From the IMG/VR virus record IMGVR_UViG_3300023371_000083: DNA of 64,000 bases. One strand, written 5' to 3'. The notes under the pieces were generated by a model. That model had not been told where the DNA came from, ran no database searches, and was given only the letters and a program-made list of their open reading frames with translations. This DNA comes from a virus. Taxonomy: Duplodnaviria > Heunggongvirae > Uroviricota > Caudoviricetes. Below, piece after piece: positions 13,081 through 55,784 of this stretch (positions are counted from its first letter, which is position 1; the number at the start of each line of letters is the position of its first letter). The position numbers and the translations under genes were made by a program.

Positions 13081-13102
13081 TTGATGAAAGGGGGAAATTT
13101 GT

Positions 13103-21251: not shown

Positions 21252-21262
21252 GGAGGATTATC

Positions 21263-22643: not shown

Positions 22644-22768
22644 TTCATTAGAAAATAATGCTAAGTACATTTATATTGGCAACAATAAATTTGTGAAAAT
22701 CTAGTTTGATCGACAAATGGCTGAAAAACTCGCAAATGGCATTAAGGAGATTAAAGTTAATGCCGGAT
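22627..22768 (+). CDS. small ORF with in-frame TAG (overlaps end of previous gene)
   Basis: RBS AGAGAGGTGA + ATG; 43 codons; TAG at 22702. Confidence 0.2.
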
Positions 22769-22782
22769 AAGGGGTTGATTGA

Positions 22783-23259: not shown

Positions 23260-23279
23260 CAGAAAGGAAGAGCAACAGT

Positions 23280-24978: not shown

Positions 24979-25129
24979 AAAATTATTGCTTGAGTTGATT
25001 TGTGATAGACAGATTGCATTATTATTACAAGACAGTACAAATTATGAATCTGCAAAATATAAGCAATTAGAGAAACTGAAAGTATATGTCAAAGATATTA
25101 AGGAGGGTGTTGCTATTGAAGGTAATTAA
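24944..25129 (+). CDS. hypothetical small protein
   Basis: ORF track; its 3' end overlaps the nrdD start. Confidence 0.3.
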   Translation: MKRFVVNMDKNKKLLLELICDRQIALLLQDSTNYESAKYKQLEKLKVYVKDIKEGVAIEGN

Positions 25130-27356
25130 AAGAAACGGTACAGAAATGTAGTTTGATTCAAATAAGATTAAAATAGCGATTTTAAAAGCATTTGTTGATG
25201 TAGATGGTGAAGAAAGCCAGTATGCAAAAGACAAGGCGAGAGATATTGCTAATTATATCGCATCTTTAAATAAAACAATGTCTGTAGAAGAAATCCAAAA
25301 TATCGTTGAAGAAAAACTGATGGCTAGCAATAGAAAAGATGTAGCCAGAGCATATGTTCGATACAGATAGATGAGAGATATGGCAAGATCCCAGTACGAT
25401 GGTTTTATGCAAGCCATTAGGGAAAAGGTTGAAGCTTCAAATGTTCAAAATCAAAACGCCAATGTAGATGAACATTCTTTTGGTGGCAGAACCGGCGAGG
25501 CAACAGACACAATGATGAAAAAGTATGCTCTTGACTATTGTGTGTCAAAAATGGCTAGAGACAACCATCTGAATAATATTATTTACATTCATGATCTGAA
25601 TTCTTATGCCGTAGGCATGCATAACTGCCTGTCAGTACCTTTAGATGATTTGCTGAAAAATGGGTTTAACACAAGACAGACTGATGTACGTCCTGCAAAT
25701 TCTGTTAATACAGCATTTCAGCTTGTAGCAGTGTTATTCCAGTTGCAATCACTAATGCAGTTTGGCGGCGTGTCCGCTACCCATATTGACCATACAATGG
25801 TTCCTTATGTGAGAAAGAGTTTTTATAAACATCTAATGGATGGTTTTAAGTATATTGAGGGCGTAGCAGAGCCTAGAAAATATATGTATCAAGAAAACGC
25901 TGATGAATTTTGGACTCAATACACTGATATTGATGACAAGGATTTAAAAGCAGCGCATCCTAAAGCATACCAATACGCAATGGATATGACGACAAAAGAG
26001 ACATATCAGGCAGTTGAAGGTATGTAGCATAACCTCAATACACTGCAGAGTAGATCTGGTAATCAGCTTCCATTTAGTTCTGTGAATTACGGCACGTGTA
26101 CTCTACCAGAAGGCAGAATGGTAACAAAAGCGTTGTTAGAAGTATCAATCAATGGTATCGGCAAACTACATAGAACGTCTGTGTTCCCTTGTGGTATTTT
26201 CCAGTGTATGAAAGGCGTAAATAGAAAACCTGGCGATCCTAACTACGATTTGTTCCAATTGGCATTAAAATCTACAGCACAGAGACTGTATCCCAATTAT
26301 GCCAATGTGGATTGGAGTAATAACGCAGGATACGATATTAATGACCCTAGAACATATTTTAGTACAATGGGTTGTCGTACAGCCAACCTGTTCGACATTA
26401 ATGGCTTAGGTCAGCTTAAAGATGGTAGAGGCAACATCTGTCCTGTAACAATCATTATGCCTACATTGGCTATGATGGCAAAAGAACTGTACGAAGACCA
26501 GACTTACGATACACATGCTAATATTGTAGATATTTTCTTATACATTCTCGACCAAAAAATTCATGAGGCAAAAGATATGCTTATTGAACGATTTGAGTGG
26601 ATTTGTAAACAGAATCCAAAATCTGCAAAATTCATGTATGAAAATAATCTAATGGCTGGTTATGTTCCAGAAGAAGGAATTAGAAGCGCTTTAAAACATG
26701 GCACCCTAGCTTTAGGTCAGTTAGGTCTTGCGGAAACACTGCAGATTCTAATTGGTTGTGACCATACAACAAAAGAAGGTATGGATTTGGCAAAACAGAT
26801 TGAGCAGTTATTCAAAGATAGATGTGCTGAGTTCAAACAAGAATATCAACTGAATTTTGGTGTTTATTATTCTCCAGCAGAAAATCTTTGTCATACAGCA
26901 ATGAGAAAATTCCAAGAACAATATGGCGTGATTGAAAAAGTATCTGATAAAGATTATTTTACAAACTCTATGCATATTCCTGTATGGCATAAAATGACAC
27001 CATTTGAAAAGATTGATTTAGAAGCGCAGTTAACAGGATACTCTAGTGCTGGATGTATTACATATGTAGAACTTGAATCTTCAGTAAAACATAACATCGA
27101 GGCACTTGAAACACTTGTTAATTATGCAATGGATCAGGATATTCCTTATTTTGCAATTAATGTTCCCAATGATACATGTTTAGATTGTGGTTATTGCGAT
27201 GAAATTAATGATGTTTGCCCCATGTGCGGAAGCAAAAGAATTCAGCGTTTACGTAGAGTAACTGGTTATTTAACAAATGATTACAAAACAGCATTTAATT
27301 ATGGCAAACAACAAGAAGTTGAAATGAGAGAAAAGCATAGTGGGGTATCCGTATGA
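25116..27356 (+). CDS. nrdD: anaerobic ribonucleoside-triphosphate reductase NrdD (class III) with three in-frame TAGs (25149, 25368, 26025)
   Basis: ATP-cone VIKRNGTEM[TAG]FDSNKIKI...AYVRYR[TAG]...; core ...EGM[TAG]HNLNTLQSRSGNQLPFSSVNYG; C-terminal Zn ribbon and glycyl-radical RVTGYL motif. TTG start follows RBS AGGAGG. Confidence 0.8.
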
Positions 27357-27898
27357 GAATTATAGATATTACAACATGCAGTGTTGCTGATGGTTTAGGG
27401 TTCCGTTTGGTAATTTGGTGTGCTGGATGTGAACATCATTGTGAAGGATGTCATAATCCTGAATCATGGGATTGTAACGCTGGACACAAACTAACAGATA
27501 AAGACCTTGATACAATATTTGATCAACTAGAATTTGATTATATTAAAGGAATCACATTTAGCGGAGGAGATCCTTTGCATCCACAAAATGTAGAGCAAGT
27601 TTATAGACTCTGCAGAGTGATTAAAGAAAATTATCCGGATAAAACAATTTGGATATATACAGGATATAAATTTGAGAACATTTATTACGAACCTGGTTGT
27701 TTTATGACTCAAGATTGTAATCCAGCAAGGGATCTTAGAAACGAAGTGCTGAAATATATCGATGTGCTTGTTGATGGCGAATTCGTTCACGACAGAAGAA
27801 ATGTAACAATTGCTTTTCGAGGTAGCGATAATCAAAGACTAATTGATGTTCCAAAATCATTAAAGGCGTGGAAAGCAGTTATTTATGAGCAGGAGTAA
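27353..27898 (+). CDS. nrdG: anaerobic RNR activating protein NrdG (radical SAM)
   Basis: Cys cluster CAGCEHHCEGCHN. Length and position immediately after nrdD fit NrdG. Confidence 0.75.
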   Translation: MRIIDITTCSVADGLGFRLVIWCAGCEHHCEGCHNPESWDCNAGHKLTDKDLDTIFDQLEFDYIKGITFSGGDPLHPQNVEQVYRLCRVIKENYPDKTIWIYTGYKFENIYYEPGCFMTQDCNPARDLRNEVLKYIDVLVDGEFVHDRRNVTIAFRGSDNQRLIDVPKSLKAWKAVIYEQE

Positions 27899-27929
27899 CA
27901 TCCTGCTCTCTATTAAAAGAGGTAGTCTT

Positions 27930-28547
27930 ATGGGAAAAGAATTGAGTTTAAGAAATTAGAATCTTGTTATCGGAGTGATGCTCCTTTGGGGTTTTATTGT
28001 AAATGTATTTACATGTGCATTTGGTGGAGAATATTTTGCTTCAATTAGTCCAGTGAAATTATTAATAGGGTATTTTATTACAGCCATTATTGGTATTTGT
28101 ATGAGCGCATTTTCAGAAAATCCGTTTGTAAGTTTCATTGGTTATAACTTGGTTGTATTACCTATCGGCGCTGTATTAAGTGTTACATTACAAGATGTTG
28201 CAAAACTAACAATCCTTATGGCGTTTGGTGCAACTGCGTGCATGACATGCTTAATGATGATAGCAGCAACATTGAAACCGCAATTGTTTTTATCAATGGG
28301 TAGAATTCTGTTTATGAGTTTGCTTTTTGTAATTATAATTGAGCTTCTAATGGTCGTGTTTTGCGGTGTATCTCCAACAATAATTGACTTTGTTGTGATT
28401 GCTTTGTTCTGTTTATATGTAGGATATGATTGGGCAAAGGCGCAAGAGATGCCAAAAACATTGGATAATGCGGTAGATAGTGTTGTTGGACTGTATTTGG
28501 ATATTGTAAATATTTTTATCAGACTCATTGATATTATGGAAGATTAA
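27930..28547 (+). CDS. BI-1/YccA-family (TMBIM) membrane protein with TAG at 27957
   Basis: Seven-TM-like hydrophobic profile. C-terminal GYDWAKAQEM...GLYLDIVNIFIRLI matches the Bax-inhibitor/YccA family. Confidence 0.5.
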
Positions 28548-28559
28548 GGAGTGCCTTGC

Positions 28560-28805
28560 ATGATAAACAAAAAAACTTGGGAAGAATTTAGAGATTCTGG
28601 AATGTTATGGTAGATCAATATGATTCTGCATATCTTTGGATGGTCAATTGTAGTTGAATTAGAAGATAAAAAAATAATAAATGCATATCCGGCAAGGGTA
28701 AAATTTAGGGGATTTTCCGAAGAGAATAATACAGAAGGATATAGAAAAGTAAGCAAATATATGTATGAAAACATTAATGAGATTTTAGAAGAAGCAGAAA
28801 ACTAA
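28560..28805 (+). CDS. hypothetical protein with TAG at 28611
   Basis: RBS AAGGAG + ATG at 28560, in frame with ORF 28620. Confidence 0.35.
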
Positions 28806-28816
28806 GGATTGATTAA

Positions 28817-30094
28817 ATGAAAACAGTAATCAAAATATTTGAGCAATTAAAAAACACCTCTGGCAAAAAAGATAAAGAGGCAATTATTGAAACCAATAAG
28901 GATAATGAATTATTCAAAGAATGTCTGGTATTTCTGTTAGACGATAATGTGACTACAGGTATCGCAAAAAAATCCTTGCAAAAGAACATCAAATGCGACG
29001 GCGACATTATGTTATTAGTATCTTGGCAAGATTGTATGTCTTATTTAAAAGAAAATAATACTGGTAAAGATTACGACATTTTAGTTGCACAAGGTTTTGT
29101 AAAATTCCAAGATGAAGCAGATAGATGGTTTTATGAAGGTATGATTACCAAAACACTTAAAATTGGTTGCGATAAAGCAATTGTCAATAAAGTGATTCCA
29201 CAATTAATTCCAGATTGGAAAGTTCAGCTAGGTTCTTCGTTTGAAAAATTGAGATTGAAAGATAACGAAAAATTCTTTTTAAGTAAAAAAATGAATGGAC
29301 ATAGAGGATCATTTTATGAAGGCAAATTTATTTCTCGCCAAGGTAAAGAAATATCTGGTTTACAACATATCATTGACGATATTGAAAAACTATATCTTAG
29401 TACATACTTTATCGACGGCGAATTGATAAGGAAAAATGTAGAGAATCTTGATGATAACGAGAATTTCAGAATCACATCGAGTATTTTAAATTCTGATACA
29501 GAAGATAAATCTGACATTGAGTTTGTAATTTTTGATATTTTTCCAGCAGATACAATTGTTGGCAATCATACTATCGAAAATTATAGTGAACGGAAAAAGC
29601 GGATGAAAGATTTAGAGTATCTTTTTCAACATAATAATATTCGTAACTTGAAAATTGTCGAAATGGTGTATGAAGGTACAGATCCTAATCAAATTCATAA
29701 ATGGCTAAAATATGCTGTAGATAATGACTGGGAAGGGATTATGCTAAACAAGGATGTTCCTTATGTGTTTAAACGCACAACGAATGTTATAAAAATCAAA
29801 CAGTTTTTATCCATAGATTTAAGAATCATCGGGTATGAAGAAGGTCAAGGAAAAAACGAAGGAAAGCTTGGAGCTTTTGTTGTTGATTATAAAGGCAATA
29901 AAGTTGAAATTGGCGGTGGATACTCAGATGAAGAGCGTGCAACCTTTTGGGAACACAGGGATGAGATGATTGGAAAAATCATAGAAATTAAATATAAAGG
30001 TGAATCCCAAAATAAAAGGAGTGGGTTAAAGAGTCTTCAGTTTGCAGATTTTGTCTGCATCAGAAACGATAAAAATGACCCTAGTTACAACTAA
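28817..30094 (+). CDS. ATP-dependent DNA (or RNA) ligase, nucleotidyltransferase superfamily
   Basis: KMNGHRG (KxDG-like motif I) ... EGIMLNK ... KIK (motif V-like). Confidence 0.55.
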   Translation: MKTVIKIFEQLKNTSGKKDKEAIIETNKDNELFKECLVFLLDDNVTTGIAKKSLQKNIKCDGDIMLLVSWQDCMSYLKENNTGKDYDILVAQGFVKFQDEADRWFYEGMITKTLKIGCDKAIVNKVIPQLIPDWKVQLGSSFEKLRLKDNEKFFLSKKMNGHRGSFYEGKFISRQGKEISGLQHIIDDIEKLYLSTYFIDGELIRKNVENLDDNENFRITSSILNSDTEDKSDIEFVIFDIFPADTIVGNHTIENYSERKKRMKDLEYLFQHNNIRNLKIVEMVYEGTDPNQIHKWLKYAVDNDWEGIMLNKDVPYVFKRTTNVIKIKQFLSIDLRIIGYEEGQGKNEGKLGAFVVDYKGNKVEIGGGYSDEERATFWEHRDEMIGKIIEIKYKGESQNKRSGLKSLQFADFVCIRNDKNDPSYN

Positions 30095-30108
30095 GAGGTG
30101 ATAGTTAT

Positions 30109-30816
30109 ATGAGTCGAATATTTGTGACGGGCGATACACACGGAGATTTTTTCCATATATAGAATTTCTGTCTTGATAATAATACTAGCATAGACGACAT
30201 TATGATTGTTTGTGGCGATGCTTGCATAAATTTTTATCTTGATAAAAGAGATGACAGACTTAAAGAAAGAATAGCTGGAATACCAATAACATTTCTAATT
30301 GTGCATGGAAACCATGAAGAACGAGCTTGGAATGTTAAGGGTTATAAACTGAAAGAACATAAAATTGGAACAGATAATTATGTGTATGGATATAGCGAAG
30401 AAAAATATCCAAATATAATTTTTGTTCAAGATTTTCATATTGAAACATTGAACGGAAAAAGATTTATGTTCCTTGGTGGTGCTTATTCTGTAGATAAATT
30501 CTATAGATTAGCAATGAACTGGTACTGGTTTGAATCTGAGCAAATGCCAGAAGAGGAAATGCTAGAGGTCTTAAAATTTGTCACAAGCGTAAGTAATTTC
30601 GATTATGTTGTGTCACATACATGTCCGTATAAATATATTCCAACAGAGGCGTTTTTGCCATCGATTAACCAGAATACAGTTGATCAGAGTACAGAATATT
30701 TCTTAGATGAAGTTGATGATTTAATTCAATACAAACAATGGTATTGTGGGCATTGGCATATCAAAAAAGAAATTCAAAAATTAAAATTCTTATTTGACGA
30801 TATTATTGAAATTTAA
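30109..30816 (+). CDS. calcineurin-like metallophosphoesterase with TAG at 30160
   Basis: VTGDTHGDFFHI[TAG]...CGDA...VHGNHEE phosphoesterase motifs. RBS AAGAGGTGA. Confidence 0.55.
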
Positions 30817-37340: not shown

Positions 37341-38063
37341 TTATTTCTTTTTATCTAAAATAGGTGTACCACCTTTATTAGAAATATTGTAACCGAATAT
37401 TGCACCAATGTCTCTGGTTTTAATATATGTATAACCATCTTTATTAATCATTTCGACAGTATACTCTTCGCCATCAACAATAATATTTTCTCTTACAATC
37501 ACTTCATCGTCCTCCTTATATTTTTCAGGAATTTCAATTTCCCAGTAATATTTTTGCTGTTTTATGAAGCGATCCCAAGGCATTTTAGAACAAATTTCTT
37601 TTTTATTATAAGGATCGTTAATAAGAACATTGTCACCATCCATTGCATAACAAAGAATATAATGTCCAGAAGATGTAAAATCGCCTTTTCCAGCAACTGC
37701 AATAATCCAATTGCCATTCTCTAACGATTTTCTAACTTCTTTGTGAACAGATGCGTTTGGTTTATTATAACAGTTAGCACTGTTCATCATTCTACATTTT
37801 ATTCCATACTCAGCCATCTGTGGTTTGAAATAAGCGTAGTATGTACCTTGTTTTAATGCTTTATATCCATGTGATTTAGACCATTCAGCAGTATCGATAG
37901 GTGTTACTGTTTTGCCGGTTATTGAAGAAATAACCATAGCAGAACAAGTAATCCCACATCCTTCTGCTTTAATGGTTGTCTGTTCTCCTTTGGTAGAGTA
38001 ATCATGGTTTGCCCATTTTGGATCTGTCTGATAATACATCACAGGTCTGCCTAATTTATTCAT
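37341..38063 (-). CDS. endolysin: C39-like/NlpC-type cysteine peptidase domain plus C-terminal cell-wall-binding repeat domain
   Basis: YQTDPKWANHDY...GCGITCSAMV...GHYIL peptidase signature. Start at MNKLGR follows RBS GGAGGTG. Sits last in the late operon. Confidence 0.6.
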   Translation of the reverse strand: MNKLGRPVMYYQTDPKWANHDYSTKGEQTTIKAEGCGITCSAMVISSITGKTVTPIDTAEWSKSHGYKALKQGTYYAYFKPQMAEYGIKCRMMNSANCYNKPNASVHKEVRKSLENGNWIIAVAGKGDFTSSGHYILCYAMDGDNVLINDPYNKKEICSKMPWDRFIKQQKYYWEIEIPEKYKEDDEVIVRENIIVDGEEYTVEMINKDGYTYIKTRDIGAIFGYNISNKGGTPILDKKK

Positions 38064-38101
38064 TGGTTTCACCTCCAAACAATAAAAAAAGAACAGGGGG
38101 G

Positions 38102-38428
38102 TTAACCCTGTTCAATAATGTCTGTTTTTAACTCGGCATCTGTATTAGAAATATCAATACGAAGTTCTGTGACAGCACGTTTAATATAAGCTTTAACTTC
38201 TTTTTCATCAAAAGTGATTTTATATTTATTCAGAAATTCCACCATTGCATCCCAAACCTACTGTGCTTTATCTTCTATTTCGCCAGTGATATGTAACTCA
38301 TTCGCTGCAGAAACCAGTGTTTTTGCAACTTTTAAAATTACTGTTCCTTTCAGCATAGGAATCCAATATTTCTTACTAAAGAATACAATACAAATAATTA
38401 ATAATTCAAAAATCCATGTAATATCCAT
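38102..38428 (-). CDS. holin-like small membrane protein with in-frame TAG at 38258
   Basis: RBS AAGGAGG; N-terminal TM; 108 codons ending TAA. Immediately upstream of the endolysin. Confidence 0.45.
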
Positions 38429-38446
38429 TTTCGATGCCTCCTTATA

Positions 38447-38788
38447 TTAGAAATTAGGGTAATCATTACTTACTTCTGCCATCTCTTCGTAAATAAAATC
38501 GTCACCATATTTCTTTTTCATTTCATTGATATTCTTCAGTCTTTCCATTTCAATATCCACTCTATCTTTCTGTTTACATCTAAAAGCATAGCACATTAAT
38601 GCAATTGCACCTAAAATACAAACATATTTAATGAGATCAGGAAGGGCAGAGTAGTCTCCAGATTCTGTCATTGCTCTCGTACACCAATGAATAAACCAAG
38701 CGACACCAATCATTACTCCGCCAACTAAAACTTTAGAATACTCTTTTTTTCTTTTTGGTTTAACTGCAGTAGTTTTTTTGGTAGCCAT
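38447..38788 (-). CDS. two-TM membrane protein (holin/antiholin candidate)
   Basis: Two hydrophobic helices and a charged C-terminus. RBS GGTGGTGAAAC. Confidence 0.45.
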   Translation of the reverse strand: MATKKTTAVKPKRKKEYSKVLVGGVMIGVAWFIHWCTRAMTESGDYSALPDLIKYVCILGAIALMCYAFRCKQKDRVDIEMERLKNINEMKKKYGDDFIYEEMAEVSNDYPNF

Positions 38789-38802
38789 GTTTCACCACCT
38801 CA

Positions 38803-39378
38803 TTCTTCAAATTCATCAACTACAGACCATGTATAAATTTCTGGCTGAACAATGTTTTGAACAAAACTATTGCCATTGACCGCAAACTATTCTTCAACCA
38901 ATCCTTCCAAAGCATCCAGCTCCATAGCTGTAATCTTTTTAGTTTTATGATGCAAACGATATGCTCTCATTATTTTATCTTTTAATTCTGCACGAATTCT
39001 TTTTTGATTGCGTTCTTCACTTTCTGCAAAACGCTGGTCTGTTTTTCTTTGATTTTCTTGCATCATCCTAGACAATTCTGTAAGCTGTGTGGCTAATTGA
39101 GTATTAGCATCAATAAGTTGTTTTTGAATTTCAAATGATTGCTCACGGTCATGTTTACGATTATCTTCATATGCACAAATTCTGTCATGATCCGATAACA
39201 ACATATTCAGTAACTCATCTTTCCGTTTTCTCGTCTGATACCAAGAATCCCAAAGACCTTTGATATCTTTTCTGTTTGATAAAAACCACCCAATCACAAC
39301 TCCTAAAATAATCAAACTAACAAGAAGAGTAGAAGAGGGGATTCTATCTATATAATCAATTAATTCGGTAAGTGTCAT
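38803..39378 (-). CDS. membrane-anchored coiled-coil protein; ORF-track stop at 38887 is TAG with a 28-codon in-frame extension to TGA
   Basis: Direct read of the extension ...LVEE[TAG]FAVNGNSFVQNIVQPEIYTWSVVDEFEE*. Confidence 0.35.
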
Positions 39379-39443
39379 TTTCTCACCGCCTTTTCCTCCG
39401 AAAGTGTTGCAATCATATAAAGCCTCGCTTTCTACAAAATTAC

Positions 39444-40265
39444 TTATTGTTTTCTAAGCTTATCTCGAATCTTTTTTTCAGAATCATATATGTTAATATA
39501 ATGTGTGCCAAGAATTTTAGGGATACGATTTATTTGAGAAATCAGTTCTTCTAATTCAGCGATATCCAGACTACATTTATGATCTGTACCTTCCATAGTT
39601 TTGTCTAATGTAATATGTCTTTCAATAATATCTGCACCTTTAATAACAGAAATCAGAGTAGGCAGCGTATCAATTTCATGACCGCTATATCCAATTGCTA
39701 AAGTGGGGTACATGTTTTTTAATCTTGTAATAACATTTAAATCCAACTCATCGTCAGCACATGGGTAAGTACTATTACAATGTAAAATACCAAGTAAATT
39801 ATCTAAGTTATATATTGCATTTAAAACTTCTGGTTCAGTGCTCATCCCATCAGAAATAATAACAGGAATACCCCAATCATTAATGGCATGGATTAATTCC
39901 ATGTCTGTAATACATGCACTTGGAATCTTGATAAAAGGTATATCATAACTATATTGCTTCATAAATTCAACACTATTTACATCCCATACACTAACAGTCC
40001 ACTTAATACCAATTTTTTGACAAAACTGATTAATAATATCGTATTCTGTTTTACCAAATTCAATTGACTTTTTATATTCAAGATAAGTCATTTCTTCACC
40101 TTTCCAGATGCGTTTAACATTTTTTTGATGTTCAGGAACACAAAAGTCTGGATCACGCTTCTGAAACTTTACAACATCAACACCACATCGTTTTGCTTCT
40201 TGAATTAACTGTAGTGCTGTGTATAATTCTCCGTTATGATTAATTCCAATTTCTCCAATAAACAT
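39444..40265 (-). CDS. NeuB-family nonulosonic-acid (Neu5Ac/KDN-9-phosphate-type) synthase, lacking C-terminal SAF domain
   Basis: FIGEIGINHNGEL...GVDVVKFQ is the NeuB/SpsE signature. Confidence 0.65.
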   Translation of the reverse strand: MFIGEIGINHNGELYTALQLIQEAKRCGVDVVKFQKRDPDFCVPEHQKNVKRIWKGEEMTYLEYKKSIEFGKTEYDIINQFCQKIGIKWTVSVWDVNSVEFMKQYSYDIPFIKIPSACITDMELIHAINDWGIPVIISDGMSTEPEVLNAIYNLDNLLGILHCNSTYPCADDELDLNVITRLKNMYPTLAIGYSGHEIDTLPTLISVIKGADIIERHITLDKTMEGTDHKCSLDIAELEELISQINRIPKILGTHYINIYDSEKKIRDKLRKQ

Positions 40266-40267
40266 AT

Positions 40268-40915
40268 TTAAAACTCCTCTTTAATCCTTACAATATCGTC
40301 TAGTTCAATTGTAGAACTTTCAATAATGACTAAATCTGTAATGGCTTTTACTTGATGAATTGTGCCAGCCGGAATTCTGATAGTGTCACCAATATTTATA
40401 CGAAACTCTTTTCCGTCTACTTTGGCAATCCCAACACCTTCAACAACATGCCATGTCTCATGTTTTTTAACATGATATTGTAGAGATATATTTAATCCTG
40501 CATCAATATGCAATCTTTTCATTGCATAGTTTTTAGTGATGTCCAGTAAATACTCTTTACCCCAACGCTTGTTGATTACAGTTAAACTTTCGGCATCATC
40601 TTTAGATATCAAATAATTTGCATTACAACCCTTATCATCTATGTAAACATCTGCAGCGGGTTTGCCAAATCTCAGTTCATGCTATTTTACACCCCAATCA
40701 GATAATTGTTGCGTTGTAAGATCGAACCAATCAATTCCAGTTTCTGTGCCACGAGCAGTATAATAAACCACTTTATTTCCGTTATCATACAAAGTGTTTG
40801 CCATTTGTATCATATCCATATATGGTTTTGCGTCCGCATAATTTTCTTCTTGACTACAGATAGTTCCATCAATATCAAAAATGTACTTTAGAGGTTTCGT
40901 ATTTGAATTTTGCAT
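40268..40915 (-). CDS. HAD-IIIA phosphatase (KdsC/nonulosonate-9-P phosphatase-like) fused to a C-terminal cupin domain; in-frame TAG at 40682
   Basis: FDIDGTI (motif I) ... YYTAR ... [TAG]HELRFGKPAADVYIDDK (motifs III/IV) span the TAG, followed by a small cupin beta-barrel. RBS AAGGAGG before M19. Confidence 0.6.
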
Positions 40916-41543
40916 ATTCGTAATCCTCCTTTGTATCAATATCGATGGTTTGTTCTTCGGGAATTTCAATCAGTGCCAAATCGTCTTTCAGCATATATCC
41001 ATCTAATTTAAATAATTCTTTATTAAAAATATGGAAGCAATGTGCGGCTTGATATAATGGATCAATTTCTTTTGTGGTTAATTTTTGATAATCAATATCC
41101 GTTTTAACATTGATATCTTTATCCCAAAGCCAGTTTTGAAATCTTTTAACGCTTGTGCCATATTCTTTTTTGCTCGCTAAGAATTGGCCGATTGATGAAA
41201 TAATAGTTTGTGGTGTTAGAAAAATGAGGCATGGATTTAGAAACATTAAGTATTTTTCTGGTACGCCAAGAATGTCTTTAAAAATAAATCGTAATGGAGT
41301 TTCTGCTTCTGCTGTAGCAGGGTGACGAATAATAATTTGTACATTTGGATATTTTTTAGCAATATCAATTAACTCTTTGTCACAAACCAAGACATATGTA
41401 TTTAGACCATAATAACTTTTAATATAATCCAGTTTCTTACAACAGATTTCAAACATACAAGTATCACCAATTGGTAAAGTCTGTTTGTTTGGTAATCTCT
41501 GACTACTCAATCTTGCTGGCACAAAAATTCCTACATGTTTCAA
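40875..41543 (-). CDS. CMP-sugar synthetase (acylneuraminate/KDO cytidylyltransferase family)
   Basis: N-terminal PARLSSQRLPNKQ matches the NeuA/KdsB signature. Confidence 0.6.
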   Translation of the reverse strand: MKHVGIFVPARLSSQRLPNKQTLPIGDTCMFEICCKKLDYIKSYYGLNTYVLVCDKELIDIAKKYPNVQIIIRHPATAEAETPLRFIFKDILGVPEKYLMFLNPCLIFLTPQTIISSIGQFLASKKEYGTSVKRFQNWLWDKDINVKTDIDYQKLTTKEIDPLYQAAHCFHIFNKELFKLDGYMLKDDLALIEIPEEQTIDIDTKEDYEYAKFKYETSKVHF

Positions 41544-42358
41544 TATAAAATACCTCCTTTTTCTCGTGTGTATCTCCCGCCACTATTATTGCAATAAAAA
41601 CACGGCATATCAGATGTAAACTCTGCAGAAGTTACACTTTTTACAAAATCTAAATATTTTTTAGATGATAGCATTTCGGATAATTTGCTTTCTTTTAAAT
41701 CACCTAAAATATATTTTTTTTGATTTTCACAATCGTTTCTCACATTACAGCATGGGCTAACTGTCCCATCATAATTAATTCCAATAAAATAAATAGGCTC
41801 ATAACACGGAGCCTCTCTTTTTATCTTAGAATATTCTGTTAAATTACCTCCACGATCAGAAATATTTGCTGTTTCTAACCATGAGTAATAATAGAGAATT
41901 GTTTTCTCATTGTATCTACCTACAAAATAATGGTCATATTCAATGATATCTGAAACATTCCATTTTTGTAATTGTTGCAAAACAAAATCTCTGCCTTTAT
42001 AATCGTAATCCATAATAGTTAATTCATCGACTAACATTGTTTGAAGAATTTGCTCATTAATATAATCGCCATTCGTGTTTGACACAATTGTTGTATCAGG
42101 AAAATAATGTTTTATTAATTGCATTGCATCACGCAATTCTTCGTGATTTGAAAATGGCTCATTATAACGTGAAAATGAAAATTTTCCTTCATATCCATTA
42201 ACTTTTAATTCTTGGAGGAGAGTGGTAAACACATTATAATTAAGCCATTCAATTTTACTTTTGCGGTCTATATAACTATTTGGACACCAGTTGCATTTGC
42301 GATTGCAATAAGAAAATAATTCTATTTCCACCAATCTAAGTTTTGAAATAATATCCAT
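41540..42358 (-). CDS. radical SAM protein (CxxxCxxC: CNRKCNWC) with C-terminal Cys-rich (SPASM-like) region
   Basis: Direct motif read. The true start MDIISK follows the upstream TAA by 1 nt. Confidence 0.6.
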   Translation of the reverse strand: MDIISKLRLVEIELFSYCNRKCNWCPNSYIDRKSKIEWLNYNVFTTLLQELKVNGYEGKFSFSRYNEPFSNHEELRDAMQLIKHYFPDTTIVSNTNGDYINEQILQTMLVDELTIMDYDYKGRDFVLQQLQKWNVSDIIEYDHYFVGRYNEKTILYYYSWLETANISDRGGNLTEYSKIKREAPCYEPIYFIGINYDGTVSPCCNVRNDCENQKKYILGDLKESKLSEMLSSKKYLDFVKSVTSAEFTSDMPCFYCNNSGGRYTREKGGILY

Positions 42359-42359
42359 T

Positions 42360-43055
42360 TTATTCAAATCCTTTTATCCATTGATTAAATGCTGTTTCAT
42401 CGTTAATATATTTACTAGGTGTAACATCTTGATAATTATAAAAATTTTCAGATAATTGACGTTGATAATTCATGGTTGCATTTATCAATTCACCTACATA
42501 CTAAGTTGTATATTGTATAGTATATTTATCTACTAACAAACACCCTATATTTTTAGGCGGGATATAATTCACTACAGAATCAAGATATAAATAGCGATAT
42601 GATAATGGCGAAGATAATTTTAAAGATTGATAATAATCCATAAGATTCTATACACAGTCATTAGATATGATACATAAAACTTTATAGTCAGGAGATAATT
42701 CGCCATCATCCATTAAAAACCTTAAAGCAGCAACACGATGTCTACCTTCATACACATAAAAACATCCTTTATTTTCTATAGGGTAAACACAAAGAGGGAA
42801 GTACATTCCTTTAGATAGTATCTCTTCACCAAAAGCTTTTTGCTTTTCTTTATATTTTTTTATAAACGGATTATCAATATTTTGGCTCCATATATCTTTG
42901 TCATTGTCAAGAGGGTCTGGAAATAAATATTGGATACTTATAAACTTGAAATCTAATATATTGCTGCGTATAAGGGGGCGTAAGGCATAATATATATAAT
43001 CCGAATGATATATTTTAGAAAATTGCTCTACAGAACAATTAATTCTAGTCAACAA
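42360..43055 (-). CDS. ParB/sulfiredoxin-like nuclease-domain protein; 135-aa ORF-track part ends in TAG (42648) and continues in frame through a second TAG (42501) to TAA at 42360
   Basis: YEGRHRVAALR ParB motif. The extension has no RBS of its own and ends exactly at the next gene's start. Confidence 0.45.
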
Positions 43056-43069
43056 AATATCATCTCCTA

Positions 43070-43225
43070 TTATACTATTTTATTACCATTAGAGTCATAC
43101 CCTAACGCCGTTAAAAGATGTAGTACATCTAATAAAAACTCATCAGGCACTAATTTCACTTCAGTATTATTTTTATCACAAGTTCTCAGTCCTGCTTTTA
43201 CTAATCTAAAATATAATTCTGCCAT
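43070..43225 (-). CDS. small protein (51 aa), TAATG-coupled to upstream gene
   Basis: Direct read; RBS GGAGGT. Confidence 0.3.
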   Translation of the reverse strand: MAELYFRLVKAGLRTCDKNNTEVKLVPDEFLLDVLHLLTALGYDSNGNKIV

Positions 43226-43557
43226 TATTCATTACCTCCAGACTTATTTATAAATGCTTCATAAATAGTAGCTTGAGCTTCCATAATAATTAAATTGTCT
43301 GCTTTTTGAGACTCATATTGTTCTGCTATAGCCTCCATGATAACTAAAATGTTTGAGGGTTCTTGAAGTAAAGATTCAATACTAGATAATTTATCTAATA
43401 CAGTATTATCTTCGCTCTTTAATCCAATATCTATAAATTCACCTTCTACATATTTTTTATGAAGAACATCAAGTCCTGTTTCTACTACATTCTCGTGGAA
43501 TCCAGGATCACTAGCTATAAGAACACAGATATCATTTTCATCTAATATAGCATACAT
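43225..43557 (-). CDS. hypothetical acidic protein (tail-fiber chaperone candidate)
   Basis: ORF track; sits downstream of a tail fiber gene. Confidence 0.35.
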   Translation of the reverse strand: MYAILDENDICVLIASDPGFHENVVETGLDVLHKKYVEGEFIDIGLKSEDNTVLDKLSSIESLLQEPSNILVIMEAIAEQYESQKADNLIIMEAQATIYEAFINKSGGNE

Positions 43558-43604
43558 AATTCATGATACCTCCTTTAATAATATATACGATAAGAACTAT
43601 TACT

Positions 43605-44474
43605 CTATAGTTTCACAATATAAGGTATACCATCCACAGTTCTAATACATCCTTGACTAACTAAATAATTATAAAGATAGTAGTCATTCTGTGTCCATAG
43701 TTCAGTTCTATCTAATCTAGGAGCTGGATTTAATTCTGCAGCATCTCCGTAACCATAAGACTTCAAAGAATTTGCTATATATAACTCTGTAGTTACAGTT
43801 CTTTTGAAACCCATAATTCTGCAACGAACATTCTGTATATCGAAGTCAGCTCCACTCGATGGCGTACCATAAGTGTTTACTATCATCGCAAGCTTGAAAG
43901 TTTGACCCGCATAACTGTTACCAAGCCCATAATTAGTATATATTTTATCATATGTTTTTGAAGTACCGGCGGCTATATTACTCAAACTTTCCAATGAAAA
44001 CATAGGGGAAAAATTCCCAGCACTATCTACTGTACCAGCATGAAATCTGAGAACTCCAGGGTTACTTCCTACATGAGTGTACTTACAGTCAACTCTTATT
44101 CCGCAAGTATCTGCAAGTATTTGAATGTCACCCAATACGACATATCCAGTATCTTGATTACATCTTGTGGCGGTAGATAAAAAATTAAATGTCTGACTTG
44201 CAGTTTTCACCAAATAATCATCAGCTCTCTTTAGTGGAGCAACATTTGCAGATATATTATTAATTAAAGTGTTTGCAGCCTCTACTTTAGTTTTTACAGT
44301 TGCCAAATCATTTTTAACACTAGATATATCATTTTTAACTCCAGATACATCAGTTCTCACATTAGACACATCAGTTTTAACTCCTGATACATTTGTGTTA
44401 ACTTCTTGTAATGTAGTTTGTTTCGCCATATCCATACTAGGATCTAAATCAAACTCATTTATTTTAGAAGACAT
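43605..44474 (-). CDS. tail fiber-like protein with N-terminal heptad (T-D-V-S-x-V-K/R) repeats
   Basis: Six or more heptads VSGVKTDVSNVRTDVSGVKNDISSVKNDLATVKTKV, then a beta-rich C-terminal domain. Confidence 0.5.
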   Translation of the reverse strand: MSSKINEFDLDPSMDMAKQTTLQEVNTNVSGVKTDVSNVRTDVSGVKNDISSVKNDLATVKTKVEAANTLINNISANVAPLKRADDYLVKTASQTFNFLSTATRCNQDTGYVVLGDIQILADTCGIRVDCKYTHVGSNPGVLRFHAGTVDSAGNFSPMFSLESLSNIAAGTSKTYDKIYTNYGLGNSYAGQTFKLAMIVNTYGTPSSGADFDIQNVRCRIMGFKRTVTTELYIANSLKSYGYGDAAELNPAPRLDRTELWTQNDYYLYNYLVSQGCIRTVDGIPYIVKL

Positions 44475-44544
44475 TTTTCATTCCTCCTTTTTAAAATAAA
44501 AGAGGGTAGTTAACCCTCATGAAATTTTATTGTGTTTAGTTAAA

Positions 44545-44697
44545 TCACTCAGCGTAATCTTCGCCAGTGATTTCTTTGTATTCTTTTTTTGTCAGAGAAT
44601 TCTTTTCGCCATTTTCAACTCTGATTACAAACTCATCTTTTGTTTTTACTCCTGCTTCATACAGGCGTTTCATACTCTCAATGATTTTAGTATTCAT
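44545..44697 (-). CDS. XkdX-like small phage protein (50 aa)
   Basis: KRLYEAGVKTKDEFVIRVENGEKNSLTKKEYKEITGEDY resembles the PBSX XkdX family. Confidence 0.5.
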   Translation of the reverse strand: MNTKIIESMKRLYEAGVKTKDEFVIRVENGEKNSLTKKEYKEITGEDYAE

Positions 44698-44882
44698 TAC
44701 AGAACACCTTCTTCCATTAACATTGCTGTATATTCATCAATTGCAGCATTTGCGATTTCTTCGTTTGTCTTTGACACCATAGCCTCGATACGATCTAACT
44801 GAGAAAGCTCAATAACTATTTCTTGTTTTACATCCACCCATTCTCCATTTTCATACTTTTTACCAAGTGGATTGAAATTCAC
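44697..44882 (-). CDS. hypothetical protein (XkdW-position)
   Basis: ORF track. Confidence 0.35.
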   Translation of the reverse strand: MNFNPLGKKYENGEWVDVKQEIVIELSQLDRIEAMVSKTNEEIANAAIDEYTAMLMEEGVL

Positions 44883-45100
44883 ATCAACGCAGAAAGTGCA
44901 CAGGTAGTTGTTGTGCTGTCGGAAGTAAGTGTTGTGATAATCCGCTGGACGGATTTAATGCAGGTTGCTGTAACTCCTACATTAAGAGTATTATTTAAAT
45001 TATTGACCTTTCCTAAAATTTCTTCAGATGTACTCTGCATAGCAACTCCATCAAAAACAGAATCATCAAGAGATCCAGCCATAATTTTTGAAGAACCCAT
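44879..45100 (-). CDS. hypothetical Ser/Thr-rich protein
   Basis: RBS AAAGGAG. Confidence 0.35.
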   Translation of the reverse strand: MGSSKIMAGSLDDSVFDGVAMQSTSEEILGKVNNLNNTLNVGVTATCIKSVQRIITTLTSDSTTTTCALSALM

Positions 45101-45185
45101 ATCAATTCTCCTTTCTTAATATAAAAAAGAGGGATTGATATTAATCAACCACCTCTAAAATATTATAAATGTTCATTTATTGTAA

Positions 45186-45287
45186 TTATTTATCCAGTTC
45201 GCTTTGAACTGTTTCTCTCCACTTTGCAGGCACATCATTAATGGTTTTAAGACCTTTTTTAATTAAATTAACATATAGTTTTACCAT
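45186..45287 (-). CDS. XkdX-like small protein (33 aa), TAATG-coupled
   Basis: MVKLYVNLIKKGLKTINDVPAKWRETVQSEL; RBS AGGAGGTG. Confidence 0.4.
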   Translation of the reverse strand: MVKLYVNLIKKGLKTINDVPAKWRETVQSELDK

Positions 45288-45706
45288 TATTCTGCACCTC
45301 CTAAAATAATTTCTGCTAATTCAGCAACAGCTAACTGTGTGTCAACAGACTCCTGTGCGATACTGGCAAGTTTTGTTTCAGAATATGTTCTCTGTGCCAT
45401 AGAAACAAAAATTCTTTTTTCAACAACAGCTTCTGTTTTCTCTGTAGCTTTTTGGATTTCTACTTCTTTTTTTACTAACTCAGCACGAATTGTATAACCT
45501 GTATGAATTGCTTTACTACCATCATCGCCAATAATAACAATAGATCCACAATTATCTTCTGTAAATACTGAATCAAGTTCATCCATACTAAAACTGTCAT
45601 TAAAAATAAAAGTTAATGTATCACGATTAATACCTTGTATATATTTTAATTCACCTGTCACTAAGATAGGTGTTAATTCTACTGCATTTGTTAATACAAT
45701 TTTCAT
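45287..45706 (-). CDS. hypothetical structural protein
   Basis: ORF track. Confidence 0.4.
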   Translation of the reverse strand: MKIVLTNAVELTPILVTGELKYIQGINRDTLTFIFNDSFSMDELDSVFTEDNCGSIVIIGDDGSKAIHTGYTIRAELVKKEVEIQKATEKTEAVVEKRIFVSMAQRTYSETKLASIAQESVDTQLAVAELAEIILGGAE

Positions 45707-45725
45707 GTTTGTTTACCTCCTTTTA

Positions 45726-46952
45726 TTAACCTAAGAATTTAATGATAACTGCACCAGGTTGTCCATTTGCACCATGACTTGAACCAGAAGCATTACCAGA
45801 ACCGCCATTGCCACCTGTACCATAAGAACCAATAGAACAGCCACCAGATTGTCCAGATGCTAAATTTCCGTATGATGTACCTACAGCACTACCTCTATTG
45901 AGACGCGTACCTACAAACTGAGCACCTGTGCCACCCTTACCACCTGCAACGGAGTATAAATTACCAAAAGATGTAGTTCCTCCTTGTTCGCCATTATAGC
46001 CACTTATATAAGTCGCAGATGAAACTTGTACATCTTTTTTCATACCTCTTACCCCTGCGGCGCCTATAGTAATTGTATATGATGCACCTTTTGATAAAGT
46101 TGTAGTATATAAAGCACCAGAACCACCACCAGCACCACCATTTGCGCCTGCATATGTGGATTTATCAGAAGTTACTCTAATACCACCAGCACCGCCTCCA
46201 CCACCACCATGTAATTCGATGGAGTACTGACCATCATCTGGTACAGTGAATGTGCCATTGGAAGTAAAAGTCCATGTATACCCAACAGGGGTGTCCGCAG
46301 ATGAGAAAAACTTCCTTGCTACATTATCTACACCAACATGACTAACTTTTATTTTTCTAGAAACATTGTTTATACCTGTCTATTTTTTTTTAACTTTTCT
46401 AGACACACCAGTTGATGTATGTACAGTGATTGTTGTGCTATTTAAAAAATATGGTATATTAGCATCACACCATTCCTTTGTTGGTTCATTCCCAGAACCG
46501 AAACAAGCAGTTAAATCAATCAACATTGGCTCTTTTCTATAAGTAACTGCAGAAGTATTTACTACGAAGTTTCTAAACACCCATGTTCCACTCACATCTG
46601 TAAATGCTTTTGTGTTTGATGTCATTTCCCAATTGTCGGTTTTCTAATGATATGCCCATACTGACAGACAATTTGCGTCAGAAGCCCAGTATTCAAATCT
46701 ACCATCGCTAAATGTTGAGTTTACTGGTGCTTTAACCATACATCGAATGTAATAAATATGGTTAACAACAGGTGCATTTAACATAACAGTGAAATGAGAG
46801 TCGCCACTAGCAACCGGAAATACAAACTCTTCATATGCATTCACAGATGGTAAAGTCGCACCACTTTTAGTCCAAGCAGAAGGTTGGGGAAGTAAATTGG
46901 TGAGTCCAATTTGAATCTCTGATGTACTACTAACATACATTCCTTTAGCCAT
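45726..46952 (-). CDS. glycine-rich tail fiber/structural protein (about 408 aa) with in-frame TAGs at 46380 and 46644
   Basis: ORFs 46644..46952, 46380..46625 and 45726..46043 are all in one frame, joined by TAGs. C-terminal GGGGGAGG / GTGGNGGSGNASGSS runs. RBS AAGGCGGTGAG. Confidence 0.5.
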
Positions 46953-46964
46953 GTTCTCACCGCC

Positions 46965-48302
46965 TTATTCGTACACCAGATGGATACAACCGTTGGCAAG
47001 GGCAGAGCCTGCACCGATATCTGTTGTGCCTTTGGTGATGTTGTGTTCACCGTAGATGTTGTAACTTTTTGCACTTCCATCAATAACATCATATAAAAAC
47101 ATAGAATTTTCTAACTAACCAGAAGCGTGATTGGTCAGAACCAAAGAACGTCTGTTATTATTATCGAATTTTACATCATATGCAACGGCATAAGTCTGTC
47201 CATTGTAACTACCGAACAAACCTAAACCATCAGATACAAATAAATCCCCGCCTCTCAGCGTTCCGCCTTCGGTTGTAAAGATTTCTTTCCAACCTGTCCA
47301 TGTAATATTACCATTTGCTGTGTAGTGTTCAGCGAACCATCTTCTGCTAGTGTTTGCCGCTTCTAATGTTAAAGATGTTCTGCTATCCATAGACTTATAA
47401 ATAATACAAGTTGCTGTTGTTGTGGGATATTGACTCGCATTATTGGAAGATGTAACATGAAACATTAACATTGAATTGTTCGGTAAAGACGCCATAATAC
47501 CATCAATTGTTTCTTCACCTACAGTAATACCAATCTGCTCAAGGGATGTGTATGTTTTTAAATTTGAATCCATCACTCTATCTAATGGCAAACTATCTTT
47601 TCTAATACTGCGACCAGACATATACTCTTCTGTTTCATTAGTTTCAATTTGTTTAAACACTTCCATTGTAATTGTTGTTCCAATAGAAACACCTTCAGTT
47701 AAAACAACTTTCATACCAGAAACCACAAAGTCAGAATTTTTATGTAATACCAGTTGACCTTGATATACTTTTAATACATCAATTGCATCATCAAATGTAT
47801 CAAAGGGAACAATAAATTCTCTTTGTCCATCTTCTACTGCAACTAAAGTATCAATCATATATACCATTTTGCCATTAATGGGAATTTTATTAATTTCATT
47901 ATCAACATACTCTTTGGTAGTTACAGTTTCTGCTAATCTATCTAATGGCATTGTGCCAACGCCAATATTAACACCAGATAATGCTGATTCTTCATCTGCA
48001 CTAACTACGGCTTTAAACACAATGATATCAATTGTTCTGCCCGCAGGAACACCTTCAAGCAAAATAACTTTTGTACCATCGATAATCTAATCATCTACAG
48101 CAGATAATTTCATACGACCTGAAAAAACCATAACTGTGTCTTTTGAGTAGTCAAATGTCTGCATTGGAATTATAAATTCTGTTTGACCATTGAATTCTGC
48201 GGTGTGTCGAAAATCGTATTTTACTAAGTTACCACTGGTAGCAAGAATTTGTTTTTTAATTTTTTGAATCTCAACGAGATTCTTAAAAGCATCAATACTC
48301 AC
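46965..48302 (-). CDS. tail fiber-like protein with tandem about 60-aa repeats and in-frame TAGs at 47115 and 48087
   Basis: The repeat ...GQLVLHKNSDFVVSGMKVVLTEG aligns with ...GRMKLSAVDD[TAG]IIDGTKVILLEG across the TAG. RBS AAAGGAGGT. Confidence 0.5.
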
Positions 48303-48334
48303 ATTAACTTACCTCCTTTATAAATAAAAAAGAC

Positions 48335-49558
48335 TCAAATAATCATTTCTGAGCCATACTCAAAGTTTTGGTTATTAAAACGTGTTTCAGTATCTTTTCT
48401 CTTGTATAAAACATAAATACCACTTTCATCATATACAGTAAACTCAGATGTGATCACGCCATTAATGTGAGAATTGTCAGTTAAAACATATTTAGCAACT
48501 ACAATAGATTCATCGGAGGCTAAATGTGCTTGCAAAGTATATACAGGTTCAATATCAGTAAATACAACAACCACATCTTCTCTTTCAAAATAATGTTGAT
48601 AAATCCATTGTTGAACACTCTTGCCAGTAGCATCTTTTACATAAGCAGCTCTTGTTTCTGGGTACATGGGAGTGTATTCGCCATCACTGTTTTTTGTTTT
48701 CATTAAAATTCTACCATCTTCTTGTAGGTGTAACCATAAGCCGCCTTCTTCTAAGTTTGACATAGGGTTTTCGCCATAAGAAACTTGTAGTAAAATTTTC
48801 ATTTTAACCCAATATGTAGATCCATCAATAGGGCGAGTATTAATATTGGGCTGCAAACAATACCACATAAAACCATCACAGGAAACCATATGATATTGTT
48901 CGTATTCAATATTATTTACCCATTCACCTCTAGGGGATAAGCCTAAACCAGTGTCACCAGTATCACCTTTGTCACCTTTATCGCCTTTTAATGCGGCAAG
49001 CTGTTCAGGTGTAAAGTCTTCATATCTAAAAGGTTCACCTTTATCGCCTTTATCACCTTTGTCACCTTTATCGCCTTTCATGGAGATTTGAAGATATTTG
49101 TCTGGTGTTTCAATAGGTGTTTCTCCGGCAACAATACCATCACCATATACTAAAAAGTATTGTCTGATTCCATCTACAGGATATCTCACAACATCAAATT
49201 TATTTAATAAATCATCACCATTAGCAGTAGAGGACATTGTAGGAGTCCAGTCGCCTTTCAGATTACCAATTCTGAAAATTTTGTCTTGGATATTATCATA
49301 AAAATATCTTTCTACAGCTACGATTGAGTGATACATTGTCATTAGTTTATCTGCATTAATAATGCATTCCATTAAACTGGGGTTTGCATTTAGCAGTTCA
49401 ATTGCTGAAGCTGTTTGCCCACCAGCAATTAATGAATTATACTGAGCAATCAGATTTACTTCAGATGCAGAGGGATCTCTCCAAGCAACATTTTTACTGA
49501 CTTGCTCTGGAAATTGCGTATGCGTTAAATCAGGATAAGTTACGCTCAATTCCGTCAA
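48335..49558 (-). CDS. collagen-like repeat (GDKGDKGDKGDKGE, Gly-X-Y) tail fiber protein
   Basis: Two blocks of G-D-K triplets. Start TTG/TTG after RBS AAAGGAG. Confidence 0.55.
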   Translation of the reverse strand: MTELSVTYPDLTHTQFPEQVSKNVAWRDPSASEVNLIAQYNSLIAGGQTASAIELLNANPSLMECIINADKLMTMYHSIVAVERYFYDNIQDKIFRIGNLKGDWTPTMSSTANGDDLLNKFDVVRYPVDGIRQYFLVYGDGIVAGETPIETPDKYLQISMKGDKGDKGDKGDKGEPFRYEDFTPEQLAALKGDKGDKGDTGDTGLGLSPRGEWVNNIEYEQYHMVSCDGFMWYCLQPNINTRPIDGSTYWVKMKILLQVSYGENPMSNLEEGGLWLHLQEDGRILMKTKNSDGEYTPMYPETRAAYVKDATGKSVQQWIYQHYFEREDVVVVFTDIEPVYTLQAHLASDESIVVAKYVLTDNSHINGVITSEFTVYDESGIYVLYKRKDTETRFNNQNFEYGSEMII

Positions 49559-49560
49559 CT

Positions 49561-49597
49561 CCTTTATATAAAAATACCCAGCAGTTTTTTCTGCTGG
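49561..49597 (-). terminator. intra-operon rho-independent terminator (CCCAGCAG-A6-CTGCTGGG + T-run) after the Tal/RBP gene
   Basis: Direct read on the minus strand. Confidence 0.45.
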
Positions 49598-49609
49598 GAT
49601 GTATTAATA

Positions 49610-55508: not shown

Positions 55509-55541
55509 TTAATAATCACCGCCTTATCTGTTTGGATATAT

Positions 55542-55775: not shown

Positions 55776-55784
55776 AATCCACCT

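Follow-up and report, generated by a model that had tools for sequence, protein, structure and literature searches.

A TAG codon within a phage holin-family gene belongs to a genome-wide late-gene pattern in which TAG apparently specifies tyrosine

The small membrane-protein gene that lies directly upstream of the putative endolysin gene in the phage described here is, judging by its sequence and its relatives, a genuine and probably functional LL-H-type holin-family gene, where 'holin' stands for a family annotation and hence for a predicted activity, and the TAG at its codon 57 is part of a genome-wide late-gene gate, with no dedicated lysis switch in sight. In the recoded blocks of this phage, TAG is apparently read as tyrosine and not as glutamine. 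It is probable that production of full-length holin requires UAG to be decoded as Tyr and that its gene is a functional member of a late block obeying this assignment. A TAG-bearing holin and the hypothesis that recoding gates lysis were both known before; what appears to be new is the apparent assignment of TAG to Tyr combined with a missing suppressor gene.

The window, by which we mean the whole analysed stretch of 64,000 nucleotides (IMG/VR record IMGVR_UViG_3300023371_000083), represents half of a phage of ~129 kb that has been assembled repeatedly, with exact-protein look-ups returning contigs of 129,321-129,329 bp. Walking outward from the window through overlapping contigs closed a circle of 129,192 bp with matching junctions, the last 13.7 kb of which came from cluster-member contigs. 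The GC content is 33%. Pfam matches to YonB, YomW, YomV, YomU, YonJ and YonG in neighbouring genes mark a temperate, SPbeta-like phage of gut or rumen Firmicutes, and the host is probably a member of the Oscillospiraceae, a hint derived from the endolysin, whose relatives (41-61% identity) occur in Oscillospiraceae MAGs. A search of GenBank returned no similar phage, and IMG/VR searches found this one only as a fragment of 23.6 kb.

Table 1. Coordinates of the features discussed, given in window positions unless a contig or the closed genome is named
Feature	Position	Strand	Remarks
LL-H-family holin gene, 108 sense codons + TAA	38428..38102	minus	divergent family member; ATG 38428-38426, TAA 38104-38102
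Holin codon 57, TAG	38260-38258	minus	sole internal stop of the ORF
Shine-Dalgarno sequence AAGGAGG	38443-38437	minus	8 nt 5' of the holin ATG, read from the sequence
Terminator-like hairpin	38091..38113	minus	overlaps the holin stop, between the holin and endolysin genes
Putative endolysin, 240 aa, Peptidase_C39_2	38063..37341	minus	Pfam E=8.6e-13
TAG-free 113-aa protein	38788..38447	minus	two hydrophobic segments (~19-36, ~51-69); charged C-terminal tail
192-codon protein, N-terminal TM + coiled coil	38800..39378	minus	opens the putative lysis cassette; carries TAG in frame at codon 164 (38887-38889)
Block A	98.0 kb through the origin to 21.8 kb (closed genome); window part 118..21817	plus	TAG 0 vs TAT/TAC 747
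Block B, nucleotide metabolism	21.8-30.9 kb; window 21814..30816	plus	TAG 7 vs TAT/TAC 137; ThyX 23280-24008, NrdD 25107-27356
Block C (FolD, dUTPase, serine recombinase)	30.9-37.4 kb		TAG 0 vs TAT/TAC 77
Block D, leftward late block	37.3-97 kb; window part 37341..64000	minus	TAG 42 vs TAT/TAC 835
YonO-like gene, 916 codons	L057:9686-12436 (~93.3-96.1 kb, outside the window)		DHDGD motif; heads late block D
AT-rich split tRNA-like gene	L014:508-1049 (= L054:9831-10372)		8 nt after the tRNA-Tyr gene
RNA-repair/translation genes (Pth2, RtcB, Thg1-like, RlaP, ArfA-like)	window 5708-7385; L167:5548-6417; L054:11048-11182

The original prediction of a 108-codon membrane protein with a strong ribosome-binding site, a TAG at codon 57 and the position typical of a holin was borne out in every respect, the minus strand, which had been left unstated, being the only detail to add (Table 1). 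The reading frame contains no internal TAA, no TGA and no frameshift. Its product matches PHROG 6918 ('holin') with E=1.4e-15 in an alignment of residues 1-102 that spans the TAG, whatever residue is placed at codon 57, while Pfam PF09682 (Holin_LLH / Phage_holin_6_1) is matched with 21.3 bits for Gln57 and 22.1 bits for Tyr57, just below the gathering cut-off of 24.9; a search of NCBIfam with this product gave no match. Twenty uninterrupted homologues of 100-123 aa, the nearest of which is 87% identical, were used to build a profile that retrieved 213 representatives from 1.8 billion proteins, and 59 of the 60 scanned homologues matched PF09682 (best 1.3e-20).

Members of the LL-H family (PF09682 / PHROG 6918) are ~100-130 aa long, start with a hydrophobic helix followed by a charged helical remainder, carry a conserved 'K-x-x-Y' motif and are encoded directly upstream of the lysin gene, and the window holin resembles them in all of these features. 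With its 108 aa it combines an N-terminal TM helix at residues ~4-20, the hydropathy maximum falling over residues 1-26, with a charged, helical and soluble C-terminal part. An AF2 model of a homologue that is 76% identical (pLDDT 90) consists of one long N-terminal helix (residues 4-47), comprising the TM segment and a linker, and three more helices (54-68, 75-94 and 97-107); among viral structures it comes closest to proteins annotated as holins or LL-H holins, though with weak E-values. The gene ends 38 nt upstream of the Peptidase_C39_2 gene, an order that is kept in relatives L001-L006 and L172-L176. What sets it apart from the family is the score just short of the Pfam cut-off and the TAG that occupies a conserved tyrosine. 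A comparison with holin homologues, proposed together with the original prediction, supported family membership and placed the TAG on the family's conserved aromatic residue: the column contains Tyr in 127, Trp in 11 and Phe in 7 of 161 homologues, the orthologous codon being TAT in L001 and L003 and TGG in L172, and the closest homologue having Trp. By this comparison, codon 57 must be read through if a holin of the length predicted from the family is to be made.

The holin is embedded in a putative lysis cassette. The putative endolysin gene, which has GGAGGTG 5' of its ATG, uses TAG at none of its 19 Tyr sites, and the 113-aa protein encoded next to the holin uses it at none of seven; this two-TM protein has a syntenic, 89% identical counterpart in L001, found no significant family match in Pfam, PHROG and NCBIfam searches, and is possibly a second holin or a partner that could form the pore. 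The first gene of the cassette bears a TAG of its own, with Tyr as the aligned residue in four different relatives. The hairpin between the holin and endolysin genes (GAACAGGG...CCCTGTTC) has a stem of 8 bp followed by T7, and a consensus scan found five terminator-like sites in 3 kb versus 1.2 expected. The segment 39444-43055 (minus strand) is conserved in L003 and L005, and two of its genes contain TAG. Elsewhere in the window there are genes for a Bax1-I (BI-1/YccA-like) membrane protein (27975-28547) and an SPFH/Band-7 protein (31556-32467), two families linked to membrane-integrity control that could bear on the regulation of lysis.

How is TAG distributed over the rest of the genome? 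Counted in genes of at least 100 aa of the closed circle, 49 in-frame TAGs fall in 32 of the 59 genes of blocks B and D, with TAG in 27 of the 48 genes of block D alone (~59 kb), whereas blocks A and C have TAG at 0 of 824 Tyr sites (Fisher P=1.4e-12 for TAG versus TAY across the four blocks). Block A, which encodes recombinases, a methylase, RtcB, Pth2, a Thg1-like protein, Sak, DnaB, DnaG and DNA Pol III alpha, lacks TAG even as a terminator; at the 4.8% rate of blocks B and D, the chance of finding no TAG at its Tyr codons would be 1e-16. Block D, at the 3' end of which the holin sits, carries the YonO-like gene, the tRNA array, virion genes (tail, baseplate), the NeuB, CTP-transferase and SPASM glycan genes and the lysis cassette. 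The genes that bear TAG include those for the YonO-like polymerase, NrdD (three TAGs), ThyX, tail and baseplate proteins and a homing endonuclease. Nine of 68 long ORFs seem to end in TAG under the standard code, yet all nine continue in frame, and bypassing TAG restores full-length NrdD, YonO-like polymerase, tail proteins and holin. By these counts TAG is a sense codon in the two blocks and never a terminator.

The gene richest in TAG is the YonO-like one, with eight TAGs versus 45 TAT/TAC codons (P=0.004), and standard-code gene callers reduce it to a fragment of 257 aa. The protein itself has no direct Pfam or PDB match; its homologues match PF05183 (RdRP-family), and from these matches, from PHROG 8308 and from the DHDGD motif of the 916-codon gene we infer that this gene encodes a YonO-like single-subunit late RNA polymerase. 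Just upstream of the tRNA array, the contig stretch L054:6892-9067 contains a Ro60/TROVE (Rsr-like) gene, and 3' of it there are two matches to Y-RNA-like (YrlA) RNAs (L054 8793-8897 and 8941-9067) that score 30-34 bits, below the gathering score.

If TAG specifies Tyr, it follows that a full-length holin would be obtained only in a cell in which UAG means Tyr: there, a 108-aa protein with Tyr57 at the start of soluble-domain helix 2 would be made, whereas in an ordinary cell translation would stop and leave a 56-residue stub consisting of the TM helix and the linker. The same dependence on UAG would hold for ~31 other genes, so that the holin would be gated together with the whole late programme, and such gating might serve to time lysis or to separate lysogeny from lytic growth. 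Lysis-specific control is not indicated, since the holin is not enriched in TAG: it has TAG at one of its four Tyr sites, compared with a block average of 4.8% (P(>=1) = 0.18). With the gate being genome-wide and the lysis cassette at the block average, the original suggestion that lysis is coupled to the availability of a suppressor is plausible as an instance of the Borges et al. hypothesis in which the holin is one of many genes concerned, but not as a property specific to the holin.

Could the TAG nevertheless do more in the holin than in other late genes? Partial suppression would generate two products, a 56-aa peptide with the TM segment only and the 108-aa protein, and their ratio could tune lysis in the manner of a holin/antiholin pair. 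Two observations make this scheme possible. The codon separates the TM and linker helix (residues 4-47 of the model) from the soluble helices (54-107), and a distant lineage, represented by a 52% identical holin homologue (L173:448-771; JGI 3300029305) that is open in frame to its TAA, has retained TAG at the same codon despite saturated synonymous sites (dS 0.6-2.3), which is not expected of a Tyr codon used at a rate of 4.8%. The TAG of L173 could have been inherited, together with a Tyr-type code, from a common ancestor, or it could have been favoured at this site by selection. However, L173 is the only second lineage with TAG at this codon; the holin is not enriched in TAG, as just noted, and genes with three to eight TAGs need nearly complete suppression. 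We therefore regard the two-product scheme as improbable and retain the reading in which the holin TAG is one element of the late-gene gate.

Which amino acid is inserted? Among ~20 informative TAG sites, Tyr is the commonest aligned residue and Gln is so at none, although some TAGs fall at variable positions or align with Trp or Phe. The homing-endonuclease TAG aligns with Tyr in all 114 homologues, and the eight sites of the YonO-like gene do so in 119/119, 116/119, 114/117, 94/100, 89/113, 21/21, 3/3 and 48/104. For NrdD, 80 IMG/VR relatives have Tyr opposite codon 314 in 80/80 and opposite codon 95 in 52/80, codon 22 lying at a variable position; alignments of NrdD with PDB entries were too distant to inform the TAG sites. 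In a GIY-YIG-like nuclease, TAG replaces the Tyr of the 'KxYIG' motif (5/5), the TAG sites of ThyX and of a cupin fusion also align with Tyr, and in a tail-fibre repeat, 'GxQYI[DN]T', TAG stands at the Tyr that paralogous copies in the same protein spell out as GSQYID, GTQYIN and GNQYIN. Under TAG = Tyr, the predicted Tyr-containing peptides would include AQYVWDAMVEFLNK for the holin and AVEGMYHNLNTLQSR for NrdD. No read-through motif was found in the context of the TAGs, where A is mildly in excess at +1.

A control is provided by the relatives themselves. In the same 80 relatives (L060-L139), whose NrdD proteins are 66-86% identical, 34 of 49 in-frame NrdD TAGs align with Gln of the window phage, and none aligns with Tyr; as one and the same alignment method yields Gln for them and Tyr here, the sister phages would use code 15 and the present lineage TAG = Tyr. 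The clade thus apparently holds standard-code members, members with TAG = Gln and members with TAG = Tyr. That the last of these lineages extends beyond a single phage is hinted at by the holin TAG of L173 and by L176 (IMGVR_UViG_3300045988_185107, ~2665), which is 57% identical and shares its TAG with codon 319 of the 1279-codon baseplate/tail-fibre gene at 49610-53449, the homology continuing past the shared TAG. As an aside, an ORF starting at 2819 in a distant relative, L039, has in-frame TAGs that align mostly with Trp or Phe, and this contig encodes a CUA tRNA of 95 nt with a long variable arm (L039:4543-4637); L039 may hold another non-Gln assignment of TAG, one that is seen in this single ORF.

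The obvious expectation would have been ordinary code 15, in which TAG means Gln as in the crAss-like, Lak, Garnet/Topaz and phAss-1 phages. It is the sole reassignment of TAG in phages described in the literature searched, and relatives of the present phage have both CUA tRNAs and TAGs that align with Gln. Nonetheless, the ~20 informative sites are mostly and often invariantly Tyr, Gln would be disruptive at the Tyr of 'YIG' and at the invariant Tyr residues of NrdD and the YonO-like protein, and the genome encodes no CUA tRNA of any type. All this makes code 15 very unlikely for this phage and leaves Tyr as the favoured assignment.

Is the holin frame alive beyond its TAG? The original prediction had allowed for the ORF being non-functional and for the adjacent two-TM protein being the only holin, and a nonsense mutation that killed the gene has something to recommend it: the neighbour has a class-II-holin-like topology, lies within the cassette and is conserved, and TAG is one step away from the TGG of the closest homologue. 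What argues against it is, first, that the TAG is fixed. Gene callers report the truncated 56-aa ORF for independent samples, on at least 24 contigs (31 index blocks) of the JGI, ENA and Logan assemblies, and three copies that were compared are base-identical over all 327 nt, TAG included. Second, selection does not stop at the TAG: comparison with three homologues gave dN/dS values of 0.07, 0.06 and 0.20 before it (codons 1-56) and of 0.18, 0.07 and 0.19 after it (codons 58-108). At the DNA level, a degenerate pattern spanning the TAG site retrieved only three IMG/VR homologues, all with TAT. Third, L173, at 52% identity, has kept its frame open past a TAG at the same codon. Furthermore, the window frame has acquired no other stop or shift, 48 other in-frame TAGs, nearly all of them at Tyr positions, reside in genes that are clearly essential, and random nonsense mutation would be expected to yield TAA and TGA as well and to favour CAG and TGG as origins. 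With the TAG fixed, selection downstream equal to that upstream and the same codon affected in L173, a pseudogene is hardly credible, and the scenario set out in the original prediction is not supported. That the TAGs are sequencing or assembly artefacts, for instance a mis-called modified base, can practically be dismissed: although the phage encodes a DNA methylase and modification of phage DNA is common, the same TAGs emerge from three assembly pipelines and many samples, they occur in certain gene blocks only and affect a single position within Tyr codons, and we know of no modification that makes T or C read as G.

The reading of TAG as Tyr raises the question of the decoder. This would be a supF-like tRNA-Tyr(CUA) or its equivalent, supplied from outside the genome or made in an unconventional way. 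The phage has 13 tRNA genes in one array, including those for Tyr(GUA), Gln(UUG) and Trp(CCA), and no tRNA with a CUA anticodon was detected in the complete 129,192-bp genome by ARAGORN, by Rfam/Infernal at E<=1 or by an anticodon-loop scan that recovers five of five control CUA tRNAs from more distant relatives. The only tRNA-Tyr(GUA), L054:9740-9823 (ARAGORN), escaped the Rfam tRNA model at E<=1, and shifting its register by one base (G1-C72, A73) also gives a fold; the eight copies taken from different contigs all have GTA as the anticodon, without G/C polymorphism at position 34. An aminoacyl-tRNA synthetase, a release factor and TGT are all absent from the Pfam tables of the genome. The literature already describes recoded phages that lack suppressor genes.

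Immediately beyond the tRNA-Tyr gene, a split tRNA-like gene (Table 1) is interrupted by a 146-codon ORF for a PD-(D/E)XK (PF11645) homing endonuclease, itself with a TAG at an invariant Tyr; the insert is flanked by a 13-bp inverted repeat (537-549 / 1007-1019 in L014) and leaves no space for a group I core. Splicing of this gene to a CUA suppressor was considered and rejected: ARAGORN with introns allowed returned an AAU anticodon, and 3,900 combinations were inconsistent, no register placing CTA at 34-36 with a paired stem. The TAG-free early block and the tRNA region harbour an unusual set of RNA-repair and translation genes, namely Pth2, an RtcB ligase, a Thg1-like 3'-5' nucleotidyltransferase and an RlaP nucleotidyltransferase, as well as a 44-aa ORF with a weak match to ArfA.

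Where, then, might the decoding capacity come from? A Tyr-type tRNA(CUA) provided by the host or by a co-resident element is a serious candidate, to which we would give slightly less than even credence. An unconventional route driven by the phage, e.g. tRNA-Tyr(GUA) combined with interference with RF1, or enzymatic re-tooling of a tRNA, seems doubtful. That the phage itself switches the cell to TAG = Tyr without any CUA tRNA, with tRNA-Tyr being re-tooled enzymatically (the RtcB, Thg1-like, Pth2 and other RNA-repair genes of the early block come to mind) or with RF1 being neutralised so that the atypical tRNA-Tyr(GUA) reads UAG, is a long shot; if true, it would amount to a new kind of code-switch mechanism that gates the YonO-like polymerase, the virion genes and the holin. 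Block A is strictly free of TAG, which argues against suppression of UAG in uninfected cells, and a complete genome that lacks a suppressor gene makes it more pressing to ask who changes the code, and when.

In E. coli, supF (su3) reads UAG as Tyr by means of a tRNA-Tyr in which a single change of the wild type, G34C, creates the anticodon CUA, and C34 is tolerated by bacterial TyrRS. The supF model would be the simplest mechanism for TAG = Tyr here too, but the phage has no such tRNA gene; if the assignment is true, a supF-like Tyr suppression system would await discovery in nature. SPbeta-type Bacillus phages encode the YonO single-subunit late RNA polymerase and a bhlA/bhlB/blyA lysis cassette. 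The phage described here resembles them in its Yon and Yom families, in the YonO-like gene that heads the late block and in having several small membrane proteins ahead of the lysin; unlike SPbeta, it is recoded, its host probably belongs to the Oscillospiraceae, and its YonO-like label comes by way of homologues and not from a direct Pfam match.

The closest parallels are the code 15 gut phages, i.e. the crAss-like, Lak, Garnet, Topaz and phAss-1 phages (Borges et al. 2021/2022; Babkin et al. 2023), among which phAss-1 is on record with a holin whose in-frame TAG is read as Gln. That recoded stops gate late and lysis genes is a published hypothesis (Borges et al., 10.1101/2021.08.26.457843), put forward with a description of phages in which late and lysis genes are recoded and replication genes and integrases are not, and since the holin TAG belongs to a genome-wide late-gene gate, the lysis-timing part of this hypothesis would be directly testable with TAG and TAT alleles of the holin. 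In the literature searched, no phage with TAG assigned to Tyr was found, and TAG or TAA as Tyr turned up there only for Mesodinium and in a preprint on bivalve mitochondria. Recoded phages are routinely annotated with code 15; if TAG = Tyr is true, such automated annotation misplaces a residue at conserved sites.

Like the code 15 gut phages, the present one concentrates its TAGs in structural, lysis and other late genes, keeps replication genes and integrases TAG-free, avoids TAG as a terminator, has a low GC content and is temperate with standard-code recombinases. Unlike them, it has TAGs that align with Tyr and a complete genome without a CUA tRNA, and its close relatives are Gln-type or not recoded, so that the assignment differs within the clade; if TAG = Tyr is true, closely related phages have turned one and the same stop codon over to different amino acids.
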